Assembly: GCA_025289735.1 (NCBI GenBank) | Contig: GCA_025289735.1_4764.2 | DNA from: a phage | Reading direction: 5' to 3' (one strand) | Length of the DNA stretch: 23,076 bases | Shown: piece after piece, positions 3,031 to 18,989 of the stretch | Layout of the letters: each line of letters opens with the position of its first letter | Position numbering within the stretch: the first letter of the stretch is position 1 | Notes under the pieces: model-generated | Seen by the model: only the letters and a program-made list of their open reading frames with translations | Told to the model about the DNA's origin: nothing | Databases searched by the model: none | Translations under genes and position numbers: made by a program

Positions 3031-6000
3031 ATGGCAGATTTTTCTCAACATTTCAAGGCCACATTTGGCTTTGACGCTGGTAATGAAAAGGTCGTCAATG
3101 TAGCATTGGCTGATAAGAATGTCAACACCGATGCGGTCAACGTTGAATTTTTCAATTACCATAATGGTATTACTCAGTATGACACAACTCGCGGTTATGA
3201 TCAATACGGCACTACAATCTATCAAAACCGTCCGTATTATGCAAAAGAAGATATCGCAAAACCAGCAGGTGACTTTGACCCGACTAAATGGCAAGCACTG
3301 CGCACGGACCCACGTTGGGATTATGTTGCAGCAACTTCCGGCGATACTCCTTTAAAGTCCGGTGACTATATCGCAGCGGACTGTCAGTTTGCAAACTTGA
3401 CATTCTCAATGCCTACTAATCCTGTAGAGGGCGACACTATAACAGTAAAAGATATCGGTGGCAAGTGCGGTGTTAATGAGTTATCGTTCCTTTCGGTTGG
3501 TCATGAGTTCTATCATAATGGTGTGGTAAACAACCGCAAATGGTACTGTACTACCCCTTATGCAATGAACTACTTCATTTTTGTTCGCAATCGCTGGCAC
3601 GTTTACCAGACGGGAACGGAGCCACGCGGGGTATATGCACAACCATCTATCGACCCGATCCAGATGCAAAACGGTGATCAGGTATTTCGTCGTAGTTCGT
3701 TGGGTAATATTACCTTAGTGCTTCCTAAGTTTGCCAACAATGGCGACATGATCCAGACTACAGACCTTGACGGATTAACCGCAACCAACCACGTTACGGT
3801 TAAAGTTCATGAGCACGCAGAAGAACAATCAATTGGCACGTCCGGTCTAAAAGAGATTATCGGTAAGCGTAGCGGTCATGGTATATTCATCTTTGACAAG
3901 ACGGAAAACTTATGGCGTTTGTGGGATGGTGATCAGTCTGTTCGTCTTAAACCGATCATCGATGACACTCGCTTATCCCCTAATAGCTATGTTGCAGTAT
4001 TTGGTGATCGTGATGTTACCTTGACTTTACCGACCAATGTCGAGTCGGGTGATCGCATTCAAGTTTCTATGCAGTATATGCACGGAAACCAGACTTGCCG
4101 AATCATTACCTCAGAAGAGGATACAAAAATCCTTATGCAGAAAAACATGGTTCAGTTTCCTAAGCGTAGCGAGTACCCATTCAATGGGACCGATACATGG
4201 ACGGGAGTGTCTGAATTGTCTTTCAACGCTGCAAATGATTATGTACCTTATCTGGAGTTCTCTTATTCAGAAGGTGATGATGGTAAGAAATACTGGCTGG
4301 TGGCACATGCTCACCCGATTGTAGAACGAGTAGATCCGACTCGTAAAGATCGTGTTGGTGTTATTGCGCTTGCTACCCAAGATGAAACAAACAAAAACCA
4401 TGAAGATAATCCTAGCGACGAAGTTGCGGTGACTCCAAAGGTTCTGGCTAACAAAACAGCCAACGAAACTCGACGCGGTATTGCTCGCATTGCAACTCAA
4501 GCGGAAACGCATCAAGATACTGGTTCCAGCTTCCTGGATGATGTTATCGTTACACCTAAAAAGTTAAATGACTGTGTTGCTACCGAAGACCGTCGTGGTG
4601 TGATGGAAATTGCAACTCAACATGAAACCAACGAAGGTTTAGACGATACTCGCGCAATCACTCCTAAGAAGTTAGAAGAGCGTCGAGCGTCAGAGGATCT
4701 TGCTGGTATCGCTGAAATTGTTCAGGTAGGCGGTAGTGCTGCCGCTCGACGTGGCGAAGCTGGTACAGGGATCTATAACATCAACGACCATGCTAAAATC
4801 GTTACTCCGCAAAACATCAACGAAGTTAAGGCGACCGAAACTTCCCGTGGTGTTGGGTATCTGGCAACTGACGCGGAAGTGCAAGGGGCTACAGAATCAA
4901 CCCCGCAAGATGCTTTACTAATCACGACTCGCACGCTAACGAAACGTACTGCTACCGAATCGCGTACTGGTATCGCTGAAATTGCAACTCAGGAAGAAAC
5001 AAACTTAGGTCAAAGTGATAACCATATCATCACGCCTAAAAAGCTGCATACTCGCCGCGCAACGGAAACTTTACATGGTTTAGCAGAAATTGCAACTCAA
5101 GAAGAGTTTGACGCAGGTCGTGACGATGCTCGCATTTCTACCCCATTGAAGATTAAAACCTTCTTTGAGAATGCACAGCGTTTGAAAGTAGACCCGACTC
5201 AGGGGCTTAACCTTACGGGTGACTTGTGGCAAGGTATCATGATCAGCGGTCTTGATGCAACCGAAGACACAAAAGGTGTCGCTAAAGTTGCTACTACTCA
5301 GCTTACGGATGTTGGTCAAGATGATACTACAATCATCACTCCTAAAAAGCTGCAAGGCAAAAAGGCCACCGAAGGTAAAGAAGGTATTATCCGAGTTGGT
5401 ACTCAAGCCGAAACCGTGGCTGGTGCACTGGCTAATGTAGCAATTTCTCCGAAGAACTTCAAATATGTTGTTCAGACAGAGGATACATGGAAAGCAACCG
5501 AAGCGCGTCGTGGTTTCTTGAAAGTTGCTACTCAGGAAAACTGTTTTGTTGGTGATAATCTGCAAGGTTCTACTCAAGAACTAGGAAACTACCAGCATGA
5601 CGGAATTGCTGTTACCCCGAAAGGATTAAACTACGCACTTGCTAATTTCTTACCTAAGATGGCAACCGCTCAGAATAGTTTGAAATTGGGTAACGTAGAG
5701 GCCGCTAAATGGGCGCGTAGAGACATTGACCAGACCATAGAGAGCAATTACACGTTTAATAAAAAAGTTAACGTGAAGGGCGATTTAGAGTGCTTAAAAT
5801 CAGGTTCCTTTGAAACTCTGTCTGTGACTAAGAACTCGACCGATGTTCCGAGTAATGGTCATCTGGTGTTGGGTGAGCGTGGAGTTGACGGTCACACCGG
5901 AATTACTCTGCATGGCACAACCGCATCGGAAGGCATGAAAAACTCTTGGTCTATTATCGTTGGTGGTACGGGAACAGCGCAAGTTGTTGATAGTGATGCT

Positions 6001-6771
6001 ATCGCTTTCGGTAAAATCAATGATGGTGGAGTCGTTGAGCATTACGCCTTTGCTATGAAACACAATGGCGACGCGACAGCATATAGAGACTTTATTGCAG
6101 GTCGTAACCTGTATGCGAAACAAGGCGGTTTATACATTGTTGACCAGTCTAATCCGGCAATGACTCGTTCCCCAGATGGTATGCTGAATATCGGTCACGG
6201 TGGAAGTGTTAACATCAAGGCAGGTCATCAAACGTTAACTACAGAGATCGCCGGACAGAAATATCAGATCGTACACGCAGGAAACGCTGACGAAGTTCTT
6301 AACCGTCAGTTTGTTAAGAATGCTGGCGATACAATGGTCGGTAAGCTGACTATGGATAATGCGCCTATTGTTTCTGTTAAGCATGAAGCTAGCGCGGCAA
6401 CCGCTCCGGCAATCAGCAACATCGGTTTCTGGAATATGCGCGTTACTACCCAGAACATCAAAGAAACTTATCCAGAGAAGAAAAACGGTACTCTGATGCA
6501 ATGGGGTACTGACGCGGACGGGCTTACCCAGCTTTGGTCCCCCGATGGTACTCATAAACATTATATCCGTTCCGGTACTGGTGGTCAATGGACCGCATGG
6601 GGTGAAATTTACACCAAACAGAATAAGCCTACCGCTCAGGAAATCGGGGCAGTAGTTGCAGAAGGTGGTTTAATGAACTCTATGACGGTTCGTGATTGGA
6701 TCAAAGTTGGTAATGTTAAAATCATCGCCAATAATCTGACTCGTACCGTAGATTTTATCTGGGAAGACTAA
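3031..6771 (+). CDS. 34: long tail fiber proximal subunit gp34
   Basis: 1246 aa (T4 gp34 is about 1289 aa). Shared motifs include VNVALAD, PKPAG.F, W.ALRTD, GD.I...DIGGK.GVN, LWRL.DGD, QFPKRSEYP, ELSFN...YVP.LEF, the repeated ITPKKL...ATE..G.AEIATQ units and C-terminal RD.I.VGNV.I. Confidence 0.9.
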   Translation: MADFSQHFKATFGFDAGNEKVVNVALADKNVNTDAVNVEFFNYHNGITQYDTTRGYDQYGTTIYQNRPYYAKEDIAKPAGDFDPTKWQALRTDPRWDYVAATSGDTPLKSGDYIAADCQFANLTFSMPTNPVEGDTITVKDIGGKCGVNELSFLSVGHEFYHNGVVNNRKWYCTTPYAMNYFIFVRNRWHVYQTGTEPRGVYAQPSIDPIQMQNGDQVFRRSSLGNITLVLPKFANNGDMIQTTDLDGLTATNHVTVKVHEHAEEQSIGTSGLKEIIGKRSGHGIFIFDKTENLWRLWDGDQSVRLKPIIDDTRLSPNSYVAVFGDRDVTLTLPTNVESGDRIQVSMQYMHGNQTCRIITSEEDTKILMQKNMVQFPKRSEYPFNGTDTWTGVSELSFNAANDYVPYLEFSYSEGDDGKKYWLVAHAHPIVERVDPTRKDRVGVIALATQDETNKNHEDNPSDEVAVTPKVLANKTANETRRGIARIATQAETHQDTGSSFLDDVIVTPKKLNDCVATEDRRGVMEIATQHETNEGLDDTRAITPKKLEERRASEDLAGIAEIVQVGGSAAARRGEAGTGIYNINDHAKIVTPQNINEVKATETSRGVGYLATDAEVQGATESTPQDALLITTRTLTKRTATESRTGIAEIATQEETNLGQSDNHIITPKKLHTRRATETLHGLAEIATQEEFDAGRDDARISTPLKIKTFFENAQRLKVDPTQGLNLTGDLWQGIMISGLDATEDTKGVAKVATTQLTDVGQDDTTIITPKKLQGKKATEGKEGIIRVGTQAETVAGALANVAISPKNFKYVVQTEDTWKATEARRGFLKVATQENCFVGDNLQGSTQELGNYQHDGIAVTPKGLNYALANFLPKMATAQNSLKLGNVEAAKWARRDIDQTIESNYTFNKKVNVKGDLECLKSGSFETLSVTKNSTDVPSNGHLVLGERGVDGHTGITLHGTTASEGMKNSWSIIVGGTGTAQVVDSDAIAFGKINDGGVVEHYAFAMKHNGDATAYRDFIAGRNLYAKQGGLYIVDQSNPAMTRSPDGMLNIGHGGSVNIKAGHQTLTTEIAGQKYQIVHAGNADEVLNRQFVKNAGDTMVGKLTMDNAPIVSVKHEASAATAPAISNIGFWNMRVTTQNIKETYPEKKNGTLMQWGTDADGLTQLWSPDGTHKHYIRSGTGGQWTAWGEIYTKQNKPTAQEIGAVVAEGGLMNSMTVRDWIKVGNVKIIANNLTRTVDFIWED
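4369..5566 (+). repeat. intragenic tandem degenerate repeats within gp34
   Basis: At least seven copies of the unit TPKKL-(x)-ATE-(x)-G-(x)-EIATQ-E are visible in the translation. Boundaries approximate. Confidence 0.7.
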
Positions 6772-6776
6772 TTAAA

Positions 6777-6792
6777 GGGGGCGAAAGCCCCC
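6777..6792 (+). other. intercistronic stem-loop (GGGGGC-GAAA-GCCCCC) between genes 34 and 35
   Basis: Perfect 6-bp GC stem with GAAA tetraloop directly after the gp34 stop; no downstream T-run, so probably an mRNA stability or processing element rather than a terminator. Confidence 0.5.
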
Positions 6793-6804
6793 TATGGGGT
6801 TATT

Positions 6805-7944
6805 ATGACACAAGAGATAGAATTACGCAACACTGGAGTTAGGTTTGCGCATTTCGACGAAGACTCTGCGACATTTACAAGCATTTCAGAAAACAACTCT
6901 GTGATGTATAAGCTGGAAGTTCGCGGATCTAATGCGGATTCTACCAAACCAGCAAGGATTAGATTTAATGGAGTGGAGATCGTTGGCACTGGCTATGAAA
7001 ATGGCCTAAATTTTAAAGTTCTTACTCCAACTGGACAACTACACGAAGAAAAGGTATTCTATGGTCGCGGTGCTGTATTGGCAATGCGTGATTATCTTTC
7101 TTTGCTGAAAGGTGACTATATCATTGCGATGGCAACGCATGGAGAATTGTTTGCAGATCCGATAAGTGATGTTGTATTTTCTAAGATGGGATCTGTATCA
7201 TTCCCGAATCACATTTTGTTACAGCAAATGCCTCGTGTATCCTATGCAGCAATTTATTCTACTAAAATGGGTAAAATTGTGTGCGAAGGGATGCAAGCAA
7301 CGCACGGGGAAGGTCAAGATTCGTCTATACAGATCGAGAAAGTTTATGATACTATAGACGATCTTGCAATAACAGGAACACCACAACGATTTTTAGATTA
7401 TCCGGTTGAATATGTTAGCGAAGATGCCGAACATTTCGAGCTAATACAATGGCCTCATGATGAGATCAGCGCACCACTTGAGGATTTTAACATAAAGTCA
7501 GGTGACAAACTATCAATATCCTTTGAATTGTTCCGTGATAGTGCCGCAGCCGCAGCCAACGTAACAGCGCGTTTCTATCACAACTACTTCACTGATGGAC
7601 AATATCAAACTGGCGTTCGTTATAATGCCAGCCAGAAAGATCAATGGGAAAAGTTTGAAACCGTCTATACCGTACCGGAAGGAGTTGATAGTGTTACCAC
7701 TGGTTGTATCAGATATCCAACCAACTCCAACGAAGGTATTGTTAAAATTAGAAACATACTAATAACGCCGATCAGTGGAGTCGTCAAAACTACTGGTCCT
7801 ACTTCATTTGGTGTTAATGGTGTTAGAACAACTCATATTCAGGATAACGGTGATTTTACTAACCCTGTAATGAGTCTTCTTAAACTGCCTAGAGATAATA
7901 AACACATCACATCCAACAACTTTAAAGAGTTCGATGTTGATTAA
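6805..7944 (+). CDS. 35: probable long tail fiber hinge protein gp35
   Basis: 379 aa (T4 gp35 about 372 aa), immediately downstream of gp34 with no separate promoter. Assignment by synteny and size; sequence similarity not confirmed from memory. Confidence 0.5.
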   Translation: MTQEIELRNTGVRFAHFDEDSATFTSISENNSVMYKLEVRGSNADSTKPARIRFNGVEIVGTGYENGLNFKVLTPTGQLHEEKVFYGRGAVLAMRDYLSLLKGDYIIAMATHGELFADPISDVVFSKMGSVSFPNHILLQQMPRVSYAAIYSTKMGKIVCEGMQATHGEGQDSSIQIEKVYDTIDDLAITGTPQRFLDYPVEYVSEDAEHFELIQWPHDEISAPLEDFNIKSGDKLSISFELFRDSAAAAANVTARFYHNYFTDGQYQTGVRYNASQKDQWEKFETVYTVPEGVDSVTTGCIRYPTNSNEGIVKIRNILITPISGVVKTTGPTSFGVNGVRTTHIQDNGDFTNPVMSLLKLPRDNKHITSNNFKEFDVD

Positions 7945-7955
7945 CATTTTTAACA

Positions 7956-7986
7956 AGCCGATCCTCGTGGTCGGCTTTATTTTTAT
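7956..7986 (+). terminator. rho-independent terminator after gene 35
   Basis: AGCCGATCCTCGTGGTCGGCT hairpin followed by TTTATTTTTAT. Confidence 0.7.
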
Positions 7987-8125
7987 ACAGTTGGTTAAAA
8001 CATAACCAAAACGAAGAAAGATCTTTAGAATAATAAAAATTTGTTTCGGTTAAAAAGTAGTCAGTGCCTACGGCACGTCGCAAAGCGACAATTGTTAATA
8101 AATATTTTCATTTGAGGAATCAGTA

Positions 8126-9414: not shown

Positions 9415-9681
9415 GTGAATATGTCCAATCAACATGAACAAATGATTAATGTCCTGAAAGTACGTCTGTTTGACACTCAAGAAAAGGCCGCATTCTTAGA
9501 AGGCCAACTGAAAGATCGTGAGCGTGTATTGATGGAACTGGTACGCATTCTGGGTATTCAGCCAGACGAAAACGGGACTGTTTCCCTTGATGCTATCGTC
9601 GAAGAAGTGAAAGCACTTCTCCCTAAAGACGAAGCCGCAGAAGCCGCAGAAGAGGAAGTAGAACTGATCACGGAGGCTTGA
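9415..9681 (+). CDS. 57A: gp57A-like tail fiber assembly chaperone (small acidic coiled-coil protein)
   Basis: 88 aa, acidic, heptad-like, between gene 1 and the 57B-like gene; size and neighbourhood match T4 57A. Sequence-level match not verified. Confidence 0.5.
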   Translation: MNMSNQHEQMINVLKVRLFDTQEKAAFLEGQLKDRERVLMELVRILGIQPDENGTVSLDAIVEEVKALLPKDEAAEAAEEEVELITEA

Positions 9682-9683
9682 TT

Positions 9684-10148
9684 ATGACCCCGTTTAGAGA
9701 ATCCGTTAAAGGTACATATGCGGCGGTTAAATTCACTGAGGATACACTAGACCGCATTGAAAAATTGCAGGAGTTCTACGATCTTCCTAATGCCGTTCCT
9801 CGTGATAAACTGCATAGCACTATCTTATATTCTCGTGTCTATGTTCCGTTTATCCCAGAAGAAGGGGAGAAGTTCTTAGGCTCTCTGTGTCATCTGAAAG
9901 TGTTTGAAACACAATCCGGTACTAATGCGCTTGTGCTGGCATTTGAAAGCGACTACATGCAATTCAGACACGATATCGGCACTGCTTTAGGTGCGACGTG
10001 GGATTATCCTGAATATGTACCGCATATCACGCTTTCTTATGATGTTGGTGCGCGTAAATTTGGCACTGACCTAGAGTTCGATTTAGAGATTGTCCGATCT
10101 CATGAGTATGTCGAAGATCTAGACCTGGAGTGGACGACCAAACTGTAA
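9684..10148 (+). CDS. acb1: 2H phosphoesterase, 57B/Acb1-like (anti-CBASS cyclic-oligonucleotide phosphodiesterase candidate)
   Basis: 154 aa from ATG at 9684 (the track start 9678 is TTG; GGAGG RBS 7 nt upstream of 9684). Two H-x-T-x motifs (HSTILY, HITLSY) typical of 2H phosphoesterases; T4 57B/Acb1 is about 152 aa and adjacent to 57A and gene 1. Confidence 0.65.
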   Translation: MTPFRESVKGTYAAVKFTEDTLDRIEKLQEFYDLPNAVPRDKLHSTILYSRVYVPFIPEEGEKFLGSLCHLKVFETQSGTNALVLAFESDYMQFRHDIGTALGATWDYPEYVPHITLSYDVGARKFGTDLEFDLEIVRSHEYVEDLDLEWTTKL

Positions 10149-10155
10149 TTCTATA

Positions 10156-10192: not shown

Positions 10193-10221
10193 TTGACAAC
10201 CATAAACGACTATAGCATAAT
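10193..10221 (+). promoter_or_regulatory. early sigma70-type promoter module copy 1 (TTGACA-17-CATAAT)
   Basis: TTGACA at 10193-10198, CATAAT at 10216-10221, then leader ATCGAAACGAAACAC and AGGAG RBS before the ATG at 10260. Confidence 0.7.
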
Positions 10222-10868: not shown

Positions 10869-11072
10869 ATGGAATTTGATATGGTTAAAGCAAAATTTAT
10901 GGGTAAGGATAAGAGCGGTAAAACATTTGTTATTAATAGAACATTGTTTCGCTCTGACCTTAAGTGGGTAACACAACAATTTGCGGAAGTCAACGAGGCA
11001 GTTGTGACATGCTTCGTTGATGATAAAAAAGTTTTTGAAATTGATCGTCGTGGGGTGTCTAATGATCACTAA
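10869..11072 (+). CDS. hypothetical protein (67 aa)
   Basis: ORF with GGTGA RBS; first gene of a translationally coupled chain. Confidence 0.55.
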   Translation: MEFDMVKAKFMGKDKSGKTFVINRTLFRSDLKWVTQQFAEVNEAVVTCFVDDKKVFEIDRRGVSNDH

Positions 11073-11259
11073 ACTGTTTAGTAATACTTTGTTTCTGATT
11101 GCATTTGTTTTCTTTCTGTGTCTGATGATCGGTGTTGTTACAGTTGGTAGCTATTCCGGTATTACCTTAGATGATTTTTGCAAACTTGTTTTGATCTCGT
11201 TTATACCTAGTATTCTGCTCGCTTTATGTGGTGCTTTTAAATGGCTTTGTACGCTATGA
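11062..11259 (+). CDS. small membrane protein (65 aa)
   Basis: ATG at 11062 overlaps the upstream stop; hydrophobic, two predicted TM helices. The track start 11017 is probably too far upstream. Confidence 0.55.
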   Translation: MITKLFSNTLFLIAFVFFLCLMIGVVTVGSYSGITLDDFCKLVLISFIPSILLALCGAFKWLCTL

Positions 11260-11366
11260 ACGAAATAGAACGAATGATGTTGATAGGTGGACCGGAGTTC
11301 ACTAAATTTGATGCAATTCTTATTGCGTTGGGTTTTCTTATGATCTGTTGTATGGTGGCGCTATGA
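11256..11366 (+). CDS. possible micro-protein (36 aa, hydrophobic)
   Basis: ATG at 11256 overlaps the upstream stop (ATGA); its own stop overlaps the next ATG at 11363. Manual translation MNEIERMMLIGGPEFTKFDAILIALGFLMICCMVAL. Confidence 0.35.
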   Translation: MNEIERMMLIGGPEFTKFDAILIALGFLMICCMVAL

Positions 11367-11587
11367 GTAGCATAAAATATTTTGCTTTCTTGTGTTTTAT
11401 GATGTTCTTCACATTCTTAGCATGTGTTTTCTTTACCTGGCTTGCTCATGTTGATAATGCAACCGGACCGTTTTACTTCTTCTGTGTATTGTCTGTGTTG
11501 ACTGGTGCTCTTGTTACGTGGATGATTCGAGATTGTTACGGAATGTATAAGTTTGAAAAGACTCGACCGAAATGGGGCAAACGATGA
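11363..11587 (+). CDS. small membrane protein (74 aa)
   Basis: Hydrophobic ORF, ATG at 11363 (track start 11348 is TTG). Confidence 0.55.
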   Translation: MSSIKYFAFLCFMMFFTFLACVFFTWLAHVDNATGPFYFFCVLSVLTGALVTWMIRDCYGMYKFEKTRPKWGKR

Positions 11588-11766
11588 AATTATTTGCATG
11601 GCTAATTATTTTAAATGTAATTGTTAAGACCTTTCTCGCTGGTCTGATGATGGCGCATAGCACCGAACCAGAAGAAGCATTAACGTATTTTGTTGCTTAT
11701 GTGTTGGGATTCTTGCTTACTGCGTGGATGTGTGATGAATATCGAAGAATTGAGGTAAAACCATGA
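11584..11766 (+). CDS. small membrane protein (60 aa)
   Basis: ATG at 11584 overlapping the upstream stop (ATGA); hydrophobic. Confidence 0.5.
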   Translation: MKLFAWLIILNVIVKTFLAGLMMAHSTEPEEALTYFVAYVLGFLLTAWMCDEYRRIEVKP

Positions 11767-11981
11767 AAATGACTTTTTATATCTTAGCAAGTATCATGCT
11801 TGTGATCTCTTCTGCCTTATTTGCATTTCTTACCGTTTGGGGGATCTGTACTGATGCGAAGCCGTGGGATATCGTAGAAAATACGGTTATGTTTATTATT
11901 AGTGTCATGTGTCTTTTTGATGCATTTAACTCTATCAAGGAAGAAGATCAAAAACGTCGCGAGAGAAAGCGATATAAATAA
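11763..11981 (+). CDS. small membrane protein (72 aa) with basic C-terminal tail
   Basis: Start overlaps the upstream stop; two hydrophobic segments then KEEDQKRRERKRYK. Confidence 0.55.
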   Translation: MKMTFYILASIMLVISSALFAFLTVWGICTDAKPWDIVENTVMFIISVMCLFDAFNSIKEEDQKRRERKRYK

Positions 11982-12132
11982 TAGTGAACTAAAGACAGCG
12001 CGGTTAGAATGATTTGGACGTCACCTAGCCGCATTTATTACAGCGTATGTGGGCTATCCGGTACGCTAAAGCATTCACTTGCTAGGCCGCTAGCAGGTTG
12101 GAGACAAGGAAGATTCGCTACCTTCCCTATAA

Positions 12133-12156
12133 GCCACTCTTCGGAGTGGCTTTTTT
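12133..12156 (+). terminator. rho-independent terminator (UUCG tetraloop)
   Basis: GCCACTC-TTCG-GAGTGGC followed by TTTTTT. Confidence 0.8.
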
Positions 12157-12184
12157 ATTGCCTAAAATTTTTTTAAAAAAGTTG

Positions 12185-12213
12185 TTGACACCAGATCCGG
12201 CCTATAGCATAAT
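12185..12213 (+). promoter_or_regulatory. early promoter module copy 3 (TTGACA-17-CATAAT)
   Basis: TTGACA 12185-12190, CATAAT 12208-12213, preceded by an A/T tract (12161-12180), followed by leader ATCGAAACGAAACACAC. Confidence 0.7.
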
Positions 12214-12259
12214 ACACCCATCGAAACGAAACACACTTTCTTAAACGGAGAATCAAATT

Positions 12260-12445
12260 ATGGCACGTCGCATCACTAAAGCACTGAAAGCAGTAAGCAA
12301 AGAAAACGTAGTAGCTATTCTGGTAATCTGGGGTTATAACGAAGAATCCGCTAAACAGAAAGTTGAAGCAGGGTTTGAACTGGCAGTAAAAGCAATGCCT
12401 AATGATGACTCTGTAGGACTGGCAAACTATATTGCATATTTCTGA
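12260..12445 (+). CDS. hypothetical protein (61 aa)
   Basis: ORF behind promoter copy 3 with GGAGAA RBS. Confidence 0.6.
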   Translation: MARRITKALKAVSKENVVAILVIWGYNEESAKQKVEAGFELAVKAMPNDDSVGLANYIAYF

Positions 12446-15582: not shown

Positions 15583-15972
15583 ATGTTTAAATTATCTCAA
15601 AGAAGCAAAGATCGGCTTGTTGGTGTACATCCTGATCTGGTAAAAGTCGTTCATCGTGCGTTAGAACTGACTCCGGTCGATTTTGGTATTACGGAAGGTG
15701 TGCGTAGTCTAGAAACGCAAAAGAAATATGTTGCGGAAGGTAAATCTAAGACTATGAAATCTCGTCATCTTCACGGTTTCGCGGTTGACGTTGTAGCGTA
15801 TCCGAAAGATAAGGATACATGGAACATGAAATACTACCGCATGATCGCGGATGCATTTAAACAAGCTGGTCGAGAATTGGGTGTTCCTGTTATCTGCGGT
15901 GTTGATTGGGTTACTTTTAAAGACGGACCGCATATGGAACTCGATAAAAAGGTATATCCAGACCCGGTATAA
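15583..15972 (+). CDS. endolysin, L-alanyl-D-glutamate peptidase (peptidase M15, T5-type)
   Basis: 129 aa; similar to T5 endolysin as recalled (VHPDL.KVV.RALELTPVDFGI.EGVR; SRHLHGFAVDV with H-x6-D zinc site; DGPHMEL). Occupies the position of T4 gene e but belongs to a different enzyme family. Confidence 0.8.
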   Translation: MFKLSQRSKDRLVGVHPDLVKVVHRALELTPVDFGITEGVRSLETQKKYVAEGKSKTMKSRHLHGFAVDVVAYPKDKDTWNMKYYRMIADAFKQAGRELGVPVICGVDWVTFKDGPHMELDKKVYPDPV

Positions 15973-16017: not shown

Positions 16018-16593
16018 ATGGCTTTTAAATATTGGGATGAATCCCTACAAAACGAGATAAAACTTAGATATGCTCATATAGAGGGTATCTTATATTATAG
16101 AGTCGATAGTAAAGCTATCAAAGGACGACCATTAGGGAGTAGATATAAACACGGCGATTTAGTTAAAGTCAGAACAAATAAAGATGGTCATCTTAGATTT
16201 TGGCATAGTAGAGATGACGGTCTTCCTAGAGTTCATCTATTCGTGCATAGGGTTGTTTGGTTTCTAGAACATGGGACGCAAGTTAGATTAATTGATCATA
16301 TTGACGGTAATCCTGCGAATAACAATCCTCCAAATCTTAGGGAGGCAACCGACGCGCAAAATCAACATAATAGAAAGAAGAAGTCTAAAAAGTTTTCTAG
16401 TGTGTATAAGGGTGTTAGTAAGTCTAACAGGAAGGATTTGCGTAAGAAATGGAGAGCTAGTATAATGGTCAACCTAAAAAGACATGTTCTTGGACAATAT
16501 GACACAGAAATCGAAGCTGCAATCGCTTATGATAATGCAGCTAGGAAATTTTATGGAGAATATGCTCTATTGAATTTCCCAGATCCAAAATAA
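16018..16593 (+). CDS. HNH homing endonuclease with C-terminal AP2 DNA-binding domain
   Basis: HNH core HRVVWFLEHGTQVRLIDHIDGNPANNNPPNLREATDAQNQHN; AP2-like YKGVS...WRASI...GQYDTEIEAAIAYDNAARKFYG. AGA/AGG/ATA-rich codon usage contrasts with neighbouring genes. Confidence 0.8.
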   Translation: MAFKYWDESLQNEIKLRYAHIEGILYYRVDSKAIKGRPLGSRYKHGDLVKVRTNKDGHLRFWHSRDDGLPRVHLFVHRVVWFLEHGTQVRLIDHIDGNPANNNPPNLREATDAQNQHNRKKKSKKFSSVYKGVSKSNRKDLRKKWRASIMVNLKRHVLGQYDTEIEAAIAYDNAARKFYGEYALLNFPDPK

Positions 16594-18290: not shown

Positions 18291-18989
18291 ATGCATACAA
18301 TGGTTAAAATGGTCTTCGGATCTCACTTGTACGGCCTTGATACTGAAAATTCAGATAAAGATTATCGTGGTATCTTTGTTCCGACTGCTAAAGAAATTAT
18401 CTTAGGATCGATGAAAGAACACTATGACCAAAGCACTAGCGGTCAAGGTATCAAGAACACCAAAGACGATATTGATGTTAATATGTTCAGTCTAAAACGG
18501 TTTATCAATCTGGCATGTAAAGGCGATATCGGCGCTATTGACATGGTGCACGCGCCTAGTAACATGTTGATTGAATCCTCCAGAGAATGGGAATACATCC
18601 GAACACATCGCGATAAATTCTATCATGTTGGGATGTGGGGTTTGTCTGGCTATCTCAAAAAGCAGGTAGCCAAATCTGAAAAGTATTTCAGTAACTGGAA
18701 AGATCTTTCTCATGCTCTGCGTGTTGGTTATCAGCTACTTGAAATCTATCAGACAGGTGATCTACAATTCCCGCTCGCGCGACGTTCTTCTATTTTAGCG
18801 TGTAAGTTAGGAGAAAGAACCTTTGATAATGTGCGGGAAGAATTGAAAGATCTCTACGAGCGTGTTAAACTCGCGCGTGAAGAGGCAAAGAAAAACGGTA
18901 TGCCGGAAGAACCAGATGTTGACTTTTGGAAAGATTTATTAGAATATATTCATCTGACCGTTGTTCTGGAACACTATACCCGTGGTTAG
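18291..18989 (+). CDS. Pol-beta superfamily nucleotidyltransferase (RlaP/YcgL-like), function unknown
   Basis: 232 aa; N-terminal VFGSHLYGLDTENSDKDYRGIF fits the hG[GS]-x(9-13)-DxD nucleotidyltransferase signature. Confidence 0.6.
   Translation: MHTMVKMVFGSHLYGLDTENSDKDYRGIFVPTAKEIILGSMKEHYDQSTSGQGIKNTKDDIDVNMFSLKRFINLACKGDIGAIDMVHAPSNMLIESSREWEYIRTHRDKFYHVGMWGLSGYLKKQVAKSEKYFSNWKDLSHALRVGYQLLEIYQTGDLQFPLARRSSILACKLGERTFDNVREELKDLYERVKLAREEAKKNGMPEEPDVDFWKDLLEYIHLTVVLEHYTRG

Follow-up and report, generated by a model that had tools for sequence, protein, structure and literature searches.

What does a T4-type coliphage keep between two co-directional genes where no further gene can be found? 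The question is raised by about 150 nucleotides (nt; positions 11982-12132) of a phage contig (GCA_025289735.1_4764.2) that was analysed over its whole length of 23,076 nt, referred to here as the window; features lie on the plus strand unless otherwise stated. The stretch follows an open reading frame (ORF) of 72 amino acids (aa) and ends at an intrinsic terminator. A first-pass annotation, made from the letters alone, had described it as structured non-coding sequence upstream of a terminator, and this description is supported, with hairpins present, no conserved ORF and a strong terminator at 12131-12158. The stretch is a strongly conserved, probably structured RNA element that is set between a late-promoter motif and this terminator. 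The reading favoured here is that positions 11986-12157 encode a non-coding RNA of approximately 172 nt, specific to the genus Krischvirus and comprising four hairpins and the terminator hairpin, for which we would put the chances at even. The earlier suggestion that a novel small RNA (sRNA) may be present is thus preferred, on the basis of genus-wide conservation, constraint on the sequence, a hairpin whose pairing has survived through compensatory and wobble changes, and the presence of a late-promoter octamer immediately before the element.

Conservation and coding potential of the stretch

The 601 bases around the element match 59 genomes of Krischvirus (RB49-like, T4-type coliphages) with 98-99.7 % identity, and the window can be assigned to this genus. 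As this query includes a repeated unit termed PeSL, which is discussed below, it matches about ten places in each genome. The 161-base core of the element itself occurs once in each of the 59 Krischvirus records (96-100 % identity), while no match was obtained in other phage records (blastn, word size 11, E ≤ 1). Similarly, blastn gave no match to the element in complete E. coli genomes (28 Gb) and 72,556 plasmids (7.3 Gb), and two pattern scans of 185,579 bacterial and archaeal species, each represented by a single genome, yielded 0 matches. About ten more variants (L002, L133-L138, L169, L170 and L172), all Krischvirus-like and with elements that are 93-98 % identical, were obtained from IMG/VR and metagenomes (JGI), by look-ups anchored on proteins and by scans with DNA patterns. 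The IMG/VR and JGI pattern scans for distant relatives returned close Krischvirus relatives only, with the remaining matches attributable to chance; these scans are exact and not equivalent to a full Infernal search, and one loose pattern gave more than 120 chance matches, none of which was confirmed by BLAST. A covariance model (R1), built from 16 distinct sequences (alignment A3), recovers the element in the window with 173.7 bits and finds no second copy in the annotated relative GEC-3S, where a weak match (L176 39675-39816; 15 bits) represents a terminator artefact. As far as these searches extend, the element is genus-specific and single-copy.

The first-pass annotation had found no plausible ORF in the stretch, and this was borne out. 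All ORFs of at least 20 aa that touch it (55 aa, 12009..12176; 48 aa, 12098..12244; 28 aa on the minus strand, 11948..12034) lack credibility, as the candidates have no Shine-Dalgarno sequence, cross the terminator or are disrupted by indels in relatives. Every candidate frame is broken among the relatives, by indels of 1-2 nt at 12052-12056 and a 1-nt deletion at 11994. When the 55-aa ORF was used as a tblastn query, only Krischvirus sequences were matched, often as two out-of-frame pieces, with nothing credible elsewhere, and the metagenome gene callers called no gene in the stretch. GenBank annotators have placed three mutually inconsistent ORFs there, or none, and an RNA is annotated at the element in 0/59 records. 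A small annotation correction can thus be made for the several GenBank records with spurious ORF calls at this site.

No canonical T-loop of a transfer RNA (tRNA) had been seen at first pass. An ARAGORN search of the whole window gave 0 genes, and tRNA and transfer-messenger RNA matches were absent in Rfam, even at E ≤ 10. The element is neither a tRNA nor a tRNA remnant. The comparison with curated RNA families that had been proposed alongside gave no match at the gathering thresholds of Rfam 15, either in the window or in approximately 148 kb of GEC-3S. Matches below these thresholds (EF3314_EF3315, 23.9 versus 100 bits; RNAI, 22.8 versus 47 bits) are driven by the terminator hairpin.

Sequence constraint and the predicted fold

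Nucleotide diversity (pi), determined from an alignment of 14 genomes, is 0.004 in hairpin 1, 0.009 over positions 12068-12130 (hairpin 3 to hairpin 4) and 0 in the terminator, compared to 0.049 in the PeSL promoter/leader and 0.055 and 0.154, respectively, at the third codon positions of the downstream and upstream genes; in hairpin 2 it reaches 0.109. In terms of variable sites, the constrained parts (hairpin 1 plus the hairpin 3-4 region; 5/110 sites) differ from each comparison class (promoter/leader, 24/101; third positions of the downstream DUF7421 gene, 16/61; third positions of the upstream 72-aa ORF, 38/70; hairpin 2, 10/26) with Fisher p-values of 1e-4 to 2e-14. Several of these comparison classes lie inside the same conserved block, and a recent recombinational sweep can therefore not explain the contrast. 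There is purifying selection on the sequence itself, loops and linkers included. Furthermore, nucleotide identity in the relatives that have diverged most falls to 75-87 % for the adjacent 72-aa gene versus 93-97 % for the element, and metagenomic relatives keep the element though their neighbouring 72-aa protein is only 81-83 % identical.

This level of constraint bears on the suggestion, also made at first pass, that the stretch may be a remnant. If a tRNA, stable RNA or protein gene had once occupied the hyperplastic region and were now decaying there, this would agree with the position of the stretch, roughly the interval that holds tRNAs and the stable RNA genes rnaC and rnaD in T4, and one metagenomic contig (L170) runs from inside the element into a frame resembling uppS. 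However, the constraint is far above neutral and contradicts neutral decay, so that the selection analysis already largely refutes this explanation. No tRNA features or similarity to rnaC/rnaD are evident, model R1 gives no match in the 66-78 kb region of T4 (rnaC, rnaD and eight tRNAs), and there is no coding homologue outside Krischvirus. A remnant is thus scarcely credible. In contig L170 (positions 1-180; OQVL01013596.1) the element is intact to the equivalent of 12110 and is followed by a frame encoding IPQHIAIILDGNGRW, which we take to be an undecaprenyl-pyrophosphate synthase-like (uppS-like) motif. The junction between the two is found in 0/59 phage records and lies 50 nt from the contig end; the contig is probably chimeric, and it was rejected as an indication of a former gene.

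The predicted RNA begins with a single-stranded, A-rich 5' end (11986..11999), which is unpaired in both the minimum free energy and consensus folds and tolerates a G/A change and the 1-nt deletion at 11994. This is followed by hairpin 1 (12000..12032), with an outer stem GCGGUUAG/CUAGCCGC, an inner stem UGAU/GUCA and a UUGGAC loop, in which 12/12 pairs are invariant and hence provide no covariation evidence. A conserved AU-rich linker, AUUUAUUAC (12033..12041), is unpaired in all folds and varies only at position 12040. It separates hairpin 1 from hairpin 2 (12042..12067; stem AGCGUAU/GUACGCU with a variable apical part), while hairpin 3 (12074..12102) consists of a core UGCUAG-GCCG-CUAGCA that is extended to 12 pairs with one bulge; 11/12 of these pairs are invariant and the central 18-mer is present in every homologue recovered. 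The remainder (12103..12130) comprises a purine-rich linker (GAGACAA), hairpin 4 (GGAAG/CUUCC; 12108-12126) and the sequence CCUAUA, and shows a single A-to-G change by which a G:U pair is retained. The RNA is predicted to end at the terminator (12131..12158), which has a 9-bp GC-rich stem (12131-12152), a UUCG loop and U6, and is annotated as such in GEC-3S and other records. An alternative helix between 11982-11990 and 12111-12120 (RNAalifold) is indistinguishable from hairpin 4, as the columns are invariant. A GGAG tetramer occurs at 12100-12103, with its first three bases inside the hairpin 3 stem.

The coordinates of the stretch and the hairpin motifs recorded at first pass (AGCGTA/TACGCT at 12042-12047/12062-12067; TGCTAG-GCCG-CTAGCA at 12080-12095) are correct. 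By contrast, what had been taken for repeated CTAGCCGC/CTAGGCCGC motifs belongs to two different hairpins, namely to hairpin 1 (3' arm) and hairpin 3 (5' arm and loop), and repeat tools report no direct or tandem repeats. The clustering of CTAG was likewise discarded as a signal, with similarly dense clusters occurring elsewhere in the window.

Hairpin 2 is the sole fast-evolving segment, changing at a near-neutral rate with its pairing kept (98.7 % of cells paired). Five of its ten pairs are variable; in one, both partners have been replaced (G:C by A:U, and a G:U intermediate is seen as well), three vary through wobble pairs and the fifth departs only by unpaired cells in two sequences. The loop of this hairpin carries indels of 1-2 nt, and coding is therefore ruled out. 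Across the whole model 99.5 % of cells pair, versus 28-47 % when the partners are slid by 1-3 columns, and the observed covariation score was reached by 6/500 column shuffles, a control that is lenient for related sequences. The fold including the terminator (11982-12160) has an energy of -61.1 kcal/mol (z = -3.34), with 1/200 shuffles as good. This is only moderately better than chance, and folding energy alone would not make the stretch remarkable. The GC content is 49 % in the element versus approximately 38 % in its flanks.

Invariance of this kind could also arise if the selected molecule were DNA, with the element serving in recombination or replication, extending the mobile PeSL cassette, or offering operator-like palindromes to a phage or host protein. 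The two 6-nt arms of hairpin 3 (TGCTAG-N4-CTAGCA) form a perfect inverted repeat around a 4-bp spacer, sequence invariance would fit recognition by a protein, and the element abuts a cassette that is known to mediate recombination (PMC2839356). The element is, however, single-copy, while the PeSL parts are present in about ten or more copies per genome. The six non-Watson-Crick pairs in the model are all G:U on the plus strand and correspond to A-C mismatches on the other, so that the mismatches in the arms are compatible with pairing on the plus strand only, and the minus strand folds no better than its shuffles (z = -0.59, versus -1.75 for the plus strand without the terminator). Furthermore, the pairing of hairpin 2 was kept via a G:U intermediate, which is meaningless in duplex DNA, and no DNA-binding gene is adjacent. 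A function at the DNA level is thus considered unlikely.

The late-promoter octamer and the predicted transcripts

The octamer TATAAATA, the consensus of T4-type (gp55-dependent) late promoters, lies directly upstream of the element (11973..11980). This consensus is placed at -13 to -6 (PMC1524935). Transcription is predicted to start at approximately 11986, 6 nt after the octamer, and with the terminator this would define a transcript of about 172 nt. In 17/17 aligned homologues the octamer is unchanged, and pi is 0 for positions 11973-11985 in 14 sequences. The plus strand of the window contains two copies, the other being located at 2995, 29 nt before the gp34 tail-fibre gene. A census of approximately 161 kb of GEC-3S identified 15 copies of TATAAATA on both strands, versus about 20 expected by base composition. 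All fifteen are sense-oriented, with none antisense or inside a gene with nothing downstream. Thirteen are situated 20-90 nt upstream of gp9, gp18, gp22, gp23, gp24, uvsW, gp51, rI, gp34, gp36, gp31, 57A and gp53, which are late-type genes or have late promoters in T4. Of the remaining two, one precedes three tiny ORFs after the gp23 terminator and the other is the element site. The octamer seems to be avoided wherever it is unused, and an invariant copy before an ORF-free, terminator-bounded stretch, the sole long one between co-directional genes in the surrounding 12.6 kb, is therefore hard to dismiss.

The locus after gp23 (GEC-3S 96199-96746; L175 31199-31746) consists of TATAAATA after the gp23 terminator, ORFs of 32, 45 and 50 aa and a further terminator, and may be another late non-coding or micro-protein unit. 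A related octamer, AATAAATA, occurs in the window at 8098-8105, 21 nt before the gp3 start codon. It fits the A/T variability reported at position -13 of RB49 late promoters (PMC1524935), and the strict TATAAATA census therefore undercounts late promoters.

A late-promoter motif followed by structured RNA immediately before a terminator would also be consistent with a long 5' leader, through which the late promoter re-expresses the DUF7421 gene and beyond by terminator read-through, with the hairpins acting as an attenuator or put-like antiterminator. However, the octamer is 280 nt from the start codon, compared to 20-90 nt for the other gene-preceding octamers of GEC-3S. Both the 9-bp GC-rich terminator with U6 and a separate early promoter intervene. 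PeSL stem-loops terminate strongly in a reporter assay, at a level approximating that of rrnB T1 (PMC2839356), and no Rfam cis-regulatory family is matched. A leader function is considered very unlikely.

It follows from the sequence layout that the element closes an early operon, whose transcripts run from the early promoters at 10193 and 10641 to the terminator at 12131-12158 and carry the element as their untranslated 3' end. Late in infection, a stand-alone short transcript may be produced from the gp55-type promoter TATAAATA and end at the same terminator. The early transcript alone could account for the element, as a purely cis-acting 3' untranslated region (UTR) that protects the 3' end of the messenger RNA (mRNA), sets termination or insulates the operon from the PeSL, with no sRNA being made. 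Early transcripts from both promoters necessarily run through the element to the terminator, and GEC-3S contains at least one further stretch (about 235 nt) that is free of ORFs and leads into a PeSL terminator, in that case without a late-promoter motif. A stabiliser or insulator requires structure, yet the loops and linkers of the element do not vary, and silent sites close by are 5-25 times more variable. This sequence-specific constraint in loops and linkers thus points to recognition by a partner, RNA or protein, rather than to a generic stabiliser. In addition, a terminator hairpin alone normally protects a 3' end, and a 3' UTR leaves unexplained the invariant TATAAATA, an octamer that otherwise marks late transcription units. 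We consider a 3' UTR function improbable, though deserving of serious attention; if the element is only a 3' UTR, the result is an ordinary one. The ORF-free stretch of GEC-3S (L174 48129-48363; minus strand), located after BN201_0086, likewise has no Rfam match.

Several observations weigh against a stand-alone, structured late RNA. The octamer is partly explained by coding, in that it spells Tyr-Lys-stop of the 72-aa ORF; TACAAGTA would be a synonymous alternative, retaining Tyr-Lys and the stop. The site is not included in the published list of 17 RB49 late promoters, which is based on a hidden Markov model 43 nt wide. In one variant from a metagenome (L169) 14 nt are missing, the octamer among them, and the element has been kept. 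With respect to structure, the fold without the terminator (11987-12130; 144 nt) is marginal (z = -1.75; 12/200 shuffles as good) and the covariation term of the consensus fold is approximately zero. The structure and covariation analysis proposed at first pass supports hairpin 2, where pairing is kept; hairpins 1, 3 and 4 show no covariation as they are invariant, and their pairing is neither supported nor contradicted. The longest antisense match between the element and approximately 170 kb of phage sequence is 12 nt, versus 11-15 nt in shuffles, and searches of the literature returned no Krischvirus transcript data.

In the L169 variant (positions 3330-3350; MAVA01000028.1) the absent 14 nt, GATATAAATAATAG, comprise the late-promoter octamer together with the stop codon that ends the 72-aa ORF, and two extra A's are present in the upstream A-run, with the rest of the element intact. 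This may be either a real promoter-less variant or a sequencing error.

Possible function, comparable RNAs and gene neighbourhood

In the favoured non-coding RNA of about 172 nt, four invariant parts are constrained in sequence and not in pairing alone: hairpin 1 (including the UUGGAC loop), the linker rich in A and U, hairpin 3, and the region of hairpin 4, which is rich in purines. This points to specific recognition, while hairpin 2 would serve as a structural spacer only. Recognition may occur by base-pairing with an mRNA, possibly aided by Hfq binding to the terminator and U-tail, or by protein binding, and could allow the RNA to regulate host or phage genes in trans at a late stage of infection. 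What we infer is that a separate late RNA is made, that the hairpins other than hairpin 2 fold as predicted and that the RNA acts in trans. The terminator with U6 and the invariant unpaired segments at 12033-12041, 12103-12107 and 12127-12130 are compatible with Hfq association, although such features are not specific to Hfq-dependent sRNAs. Antisense duplex-folding tiling against the phage sequence was uninformative, and blastn found no extended match to E. coli genomes on either strand. A role as a sponge for CsrA was rejected, since the four GGA motifs counted in the sequence show no enrichment over the approximately three expected. Mimicry of a type I-F CRISPR repeat, GTTCACTGCCGTACAGGCAGCTTAGAAA, was also considered for positions 12074-12104 (TTCACT, a hairpin and TTGGAGA); the resemblance is only loose, no CRISPR-DR family of Rfam is matched, and the comparison was dropped.

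A more specific proposal concerns the genes upstream, which include the anti-CBASS nuclease Acb1 and Dmd, an antitoxin against RnlA/LsoA. The element may be an anti-defence RNA decoy, for example a mimic of ToxI, the antitoxin RNA of ToxIN type III systems. Pectobacterium phage PhiTE reportedly encodes such an RNA mimic of a type III antitoxin, pseudo-ToxI, which functions in counter-defence. The element, likewise a candidate non-coding RNA of a phage, is located near other counter-defence genes, as Acb1 and Dmd are situated 1-2 kb upstream and transcribed in the same early direction, and over 13 nt (12111-12123; GATTCGCTACCTT) it agrees with the ToxI repeat at 12/13 bases. Among E. coli plasmids, at least 49 carry identical ToxI arrays. 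It differs from pseudo-ToxI in that the similarity is at chance level (shuffle p of approximately 0.02-0.1, with equal or better matches elsewhere in the window), tandem 36-nt repeats are absent and AAAU, the site cleaved by ToxN, is not found from 11986 to 12158; moreover, ToxI is not among the Rfam matches. ToxI mimicry was thus rejected, the ToxI sequence used having been verified on the plasmids, and a decoy of this type is considered highly improbable. An anti-defence role on the basis of the Acb1/Dmd neighbourhood is conceivable but unsupported. The 36-nt ToxI repeat of Pectobacterium plasmid pECA1039 is present, with 100 % identity, on dozens of plasmids that are small and mobilisable. 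At least 49 of these come from E. coli and 12 from Salmonella, and ToxIN systems with exactly this antitoxin are therefore common in the hosts of these phages.

The prophage sRNA DicF and the anti-sRNAs AgvB and AsxR are examples of phage-encoded RNAs that act in trans. Trans-acting sRNAs of phages, of which the lambda-encoded sRNA acting on the host replication machinery is a further example (bioRxiv 10.1101/2024.10.31.621285), are short, non-coding and end at an intrinsic terminator, as is predicted for the element. Similarly, they often form the 3' end of a coding operon, and their proposed action is via short conserved single-stranded segments. They differ from the element in belonging to temperate phages or prophages and in having mapped targets and Hfq dependence, whereas the element is from a virulent T4-like phage, follows a gp55-type promoter motif and is known from sequence alone. 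Among the known systems considered, the element appears most like a phage-encoded, terminator-ended small RNA, and belongs to no curated RNA family and to neither the tRNA/rnaC/rnaD nor the ToxI group.

The first-pass annotation had placed the stretch at the T4 tRNA/small-RNA locus. The T4 record does carry eight tRNAs, rnaC (139 nt) and rnaD (119 nt) between 57B and e, and, like rnaC and rnaD, the element is a small non-coding RNA candidate of a T4-type phage in the variable interval downstream of 57A/57B. The link is positional only, and synteny with the T4 interval is approximate, because the lysin of the window (15583..15972) is a Peptidase_M15_4 enzyme and not a homologue of T4 e. The species 1/2 stable RNAs of T4, encoded by rnaC and rnaD, are 119-139 nt, stable and of unknown function (PMC3014915). 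The T4 RNAs are co-transcribed with tRNAs, whereas the element has its own late-promoter motif and intrinsic terminator, and rnaC at least contains a tRNA-like T-arm (read from its sequence as CCGGGTTCGAATCCCGG), whereas no such arm is present in the element. Phages of the RB49 type lack tRNA genes altogether (PMC1524935). Membership of the rnaC/rnaD group was rejected, as neither model R1 nor BLAST reveals homology and there is no tRNA operon in the window or the RB49 genome.

No trans-acting small RNA had been characterised in T4 according to a 2010 review, which suggested its relatives as a candidate source (PMC3014915). Literature searches gave nothing newer on trans-acting small RNAs of T4-type phages and no mention of a small RNA in RB49-type phages. 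The element might be a riboregulator acting in trans, or an RNA decoy, and as such the first in any virulent phage of the T4 type, driven by a late promoter, present genus-wide and located in a counter-defence region; this stronger claim is advanced as a doubtful one. Were it true, the RNA would act on late host gene expression or against an RNA-targeting host defence. The element provides a concrete candidate with clear boundaries, for which a start is proposed, the end and four hairpins are defined and the constrained bases have been mapped, and is carried by easily grown coliphages, including RB49, phi1, JSE and several phage-therapy isolates.

The gene order around the element, taken from GEC-3S, is gp3, dNMP kinase, 57A, 57B and then many small early genes. 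The genes 57A and 57B (9415..10148) are located upstream, and Pfam identifies 57B (9678..10148), the counterpart of T4 57B that is labelled 'RNA ligase' in records, as Acb1. Dmd (10869..11072; Pfam) is followed by small hydrophobic ORFs without family assignment (11017..11981), the last of which is the 72-aa ORF (11763..11981). A consensus scan of the plus strand identified strong early promoters at 10193, 10641, 12185, 12454 and 13157, and terminators at 10155 and 12131 only. The sigma-70-type early promoter TTGACA-17-CATAAT (12185..12213) drives the DUF7421 gene (12260..12445) and, together with the terminator at 12131-12158, forms one typical PeSL cassette, of which it is the second part. 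PeSLs are repeated terminator/early-promoter units of RB49 and phi1 that bound gene modules in hyperplastic regions, and are defined by a GC-rich stem-loop terminator, an AT-rich tract, a sigma-70-like early promoter and genome-wide repeats (PMC2839356, PMC4122927). Here these features are confined to 12131-12213, and the element body at 11986-12130 does not belong to the repeat. The element resembles PeSL cassettes in that its terminator and the following promoter are a typical PeSL. PeSLs normally occur directly after a stop codon, as at 10155 after the 57B stop at 10148, whereas here 145 nt of single-copy sequence precedes the cassette.

The DUF7421 protein shares 75-80 % identity with proteins encoded in phage contigs of about 50 kb in IMG/VR. 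This likeness is far above what is expected for unrelated phage groups and suggests a recent exchange of this small gene. A linkage between the element and DUF7421 was rejected, as 16 IMG/VR loci with DUF7421 homologues in T1-like contigs of this size carry no element.

Two ORFs of 1246 and 379 aa (3031..7944) have the lengths of the long tail-fibre genes gp34 and gp35 of GEC-3S. They are followed by a terminator (7956-7985) and the gp3-gp1-57A-57B block, with a junction at approximately 7990/7991. The tail-fibre and gp3 blocks are far apart in 58/59 Krischvirus records (approximately 85 kb in GEC-3S), and the junction is contiguous only in OZ035795.1 (Krischvirus LF73P4). It represents either a rare large rearrangement or an assembly artefact. 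The variable region that contains the element also encodes a homing-endonuclease-like protein with HNH and AP2 domains (16018..16593) and a nucleotidyltransferase of the RlaP family (RNA repair pathway; 18291..18989).

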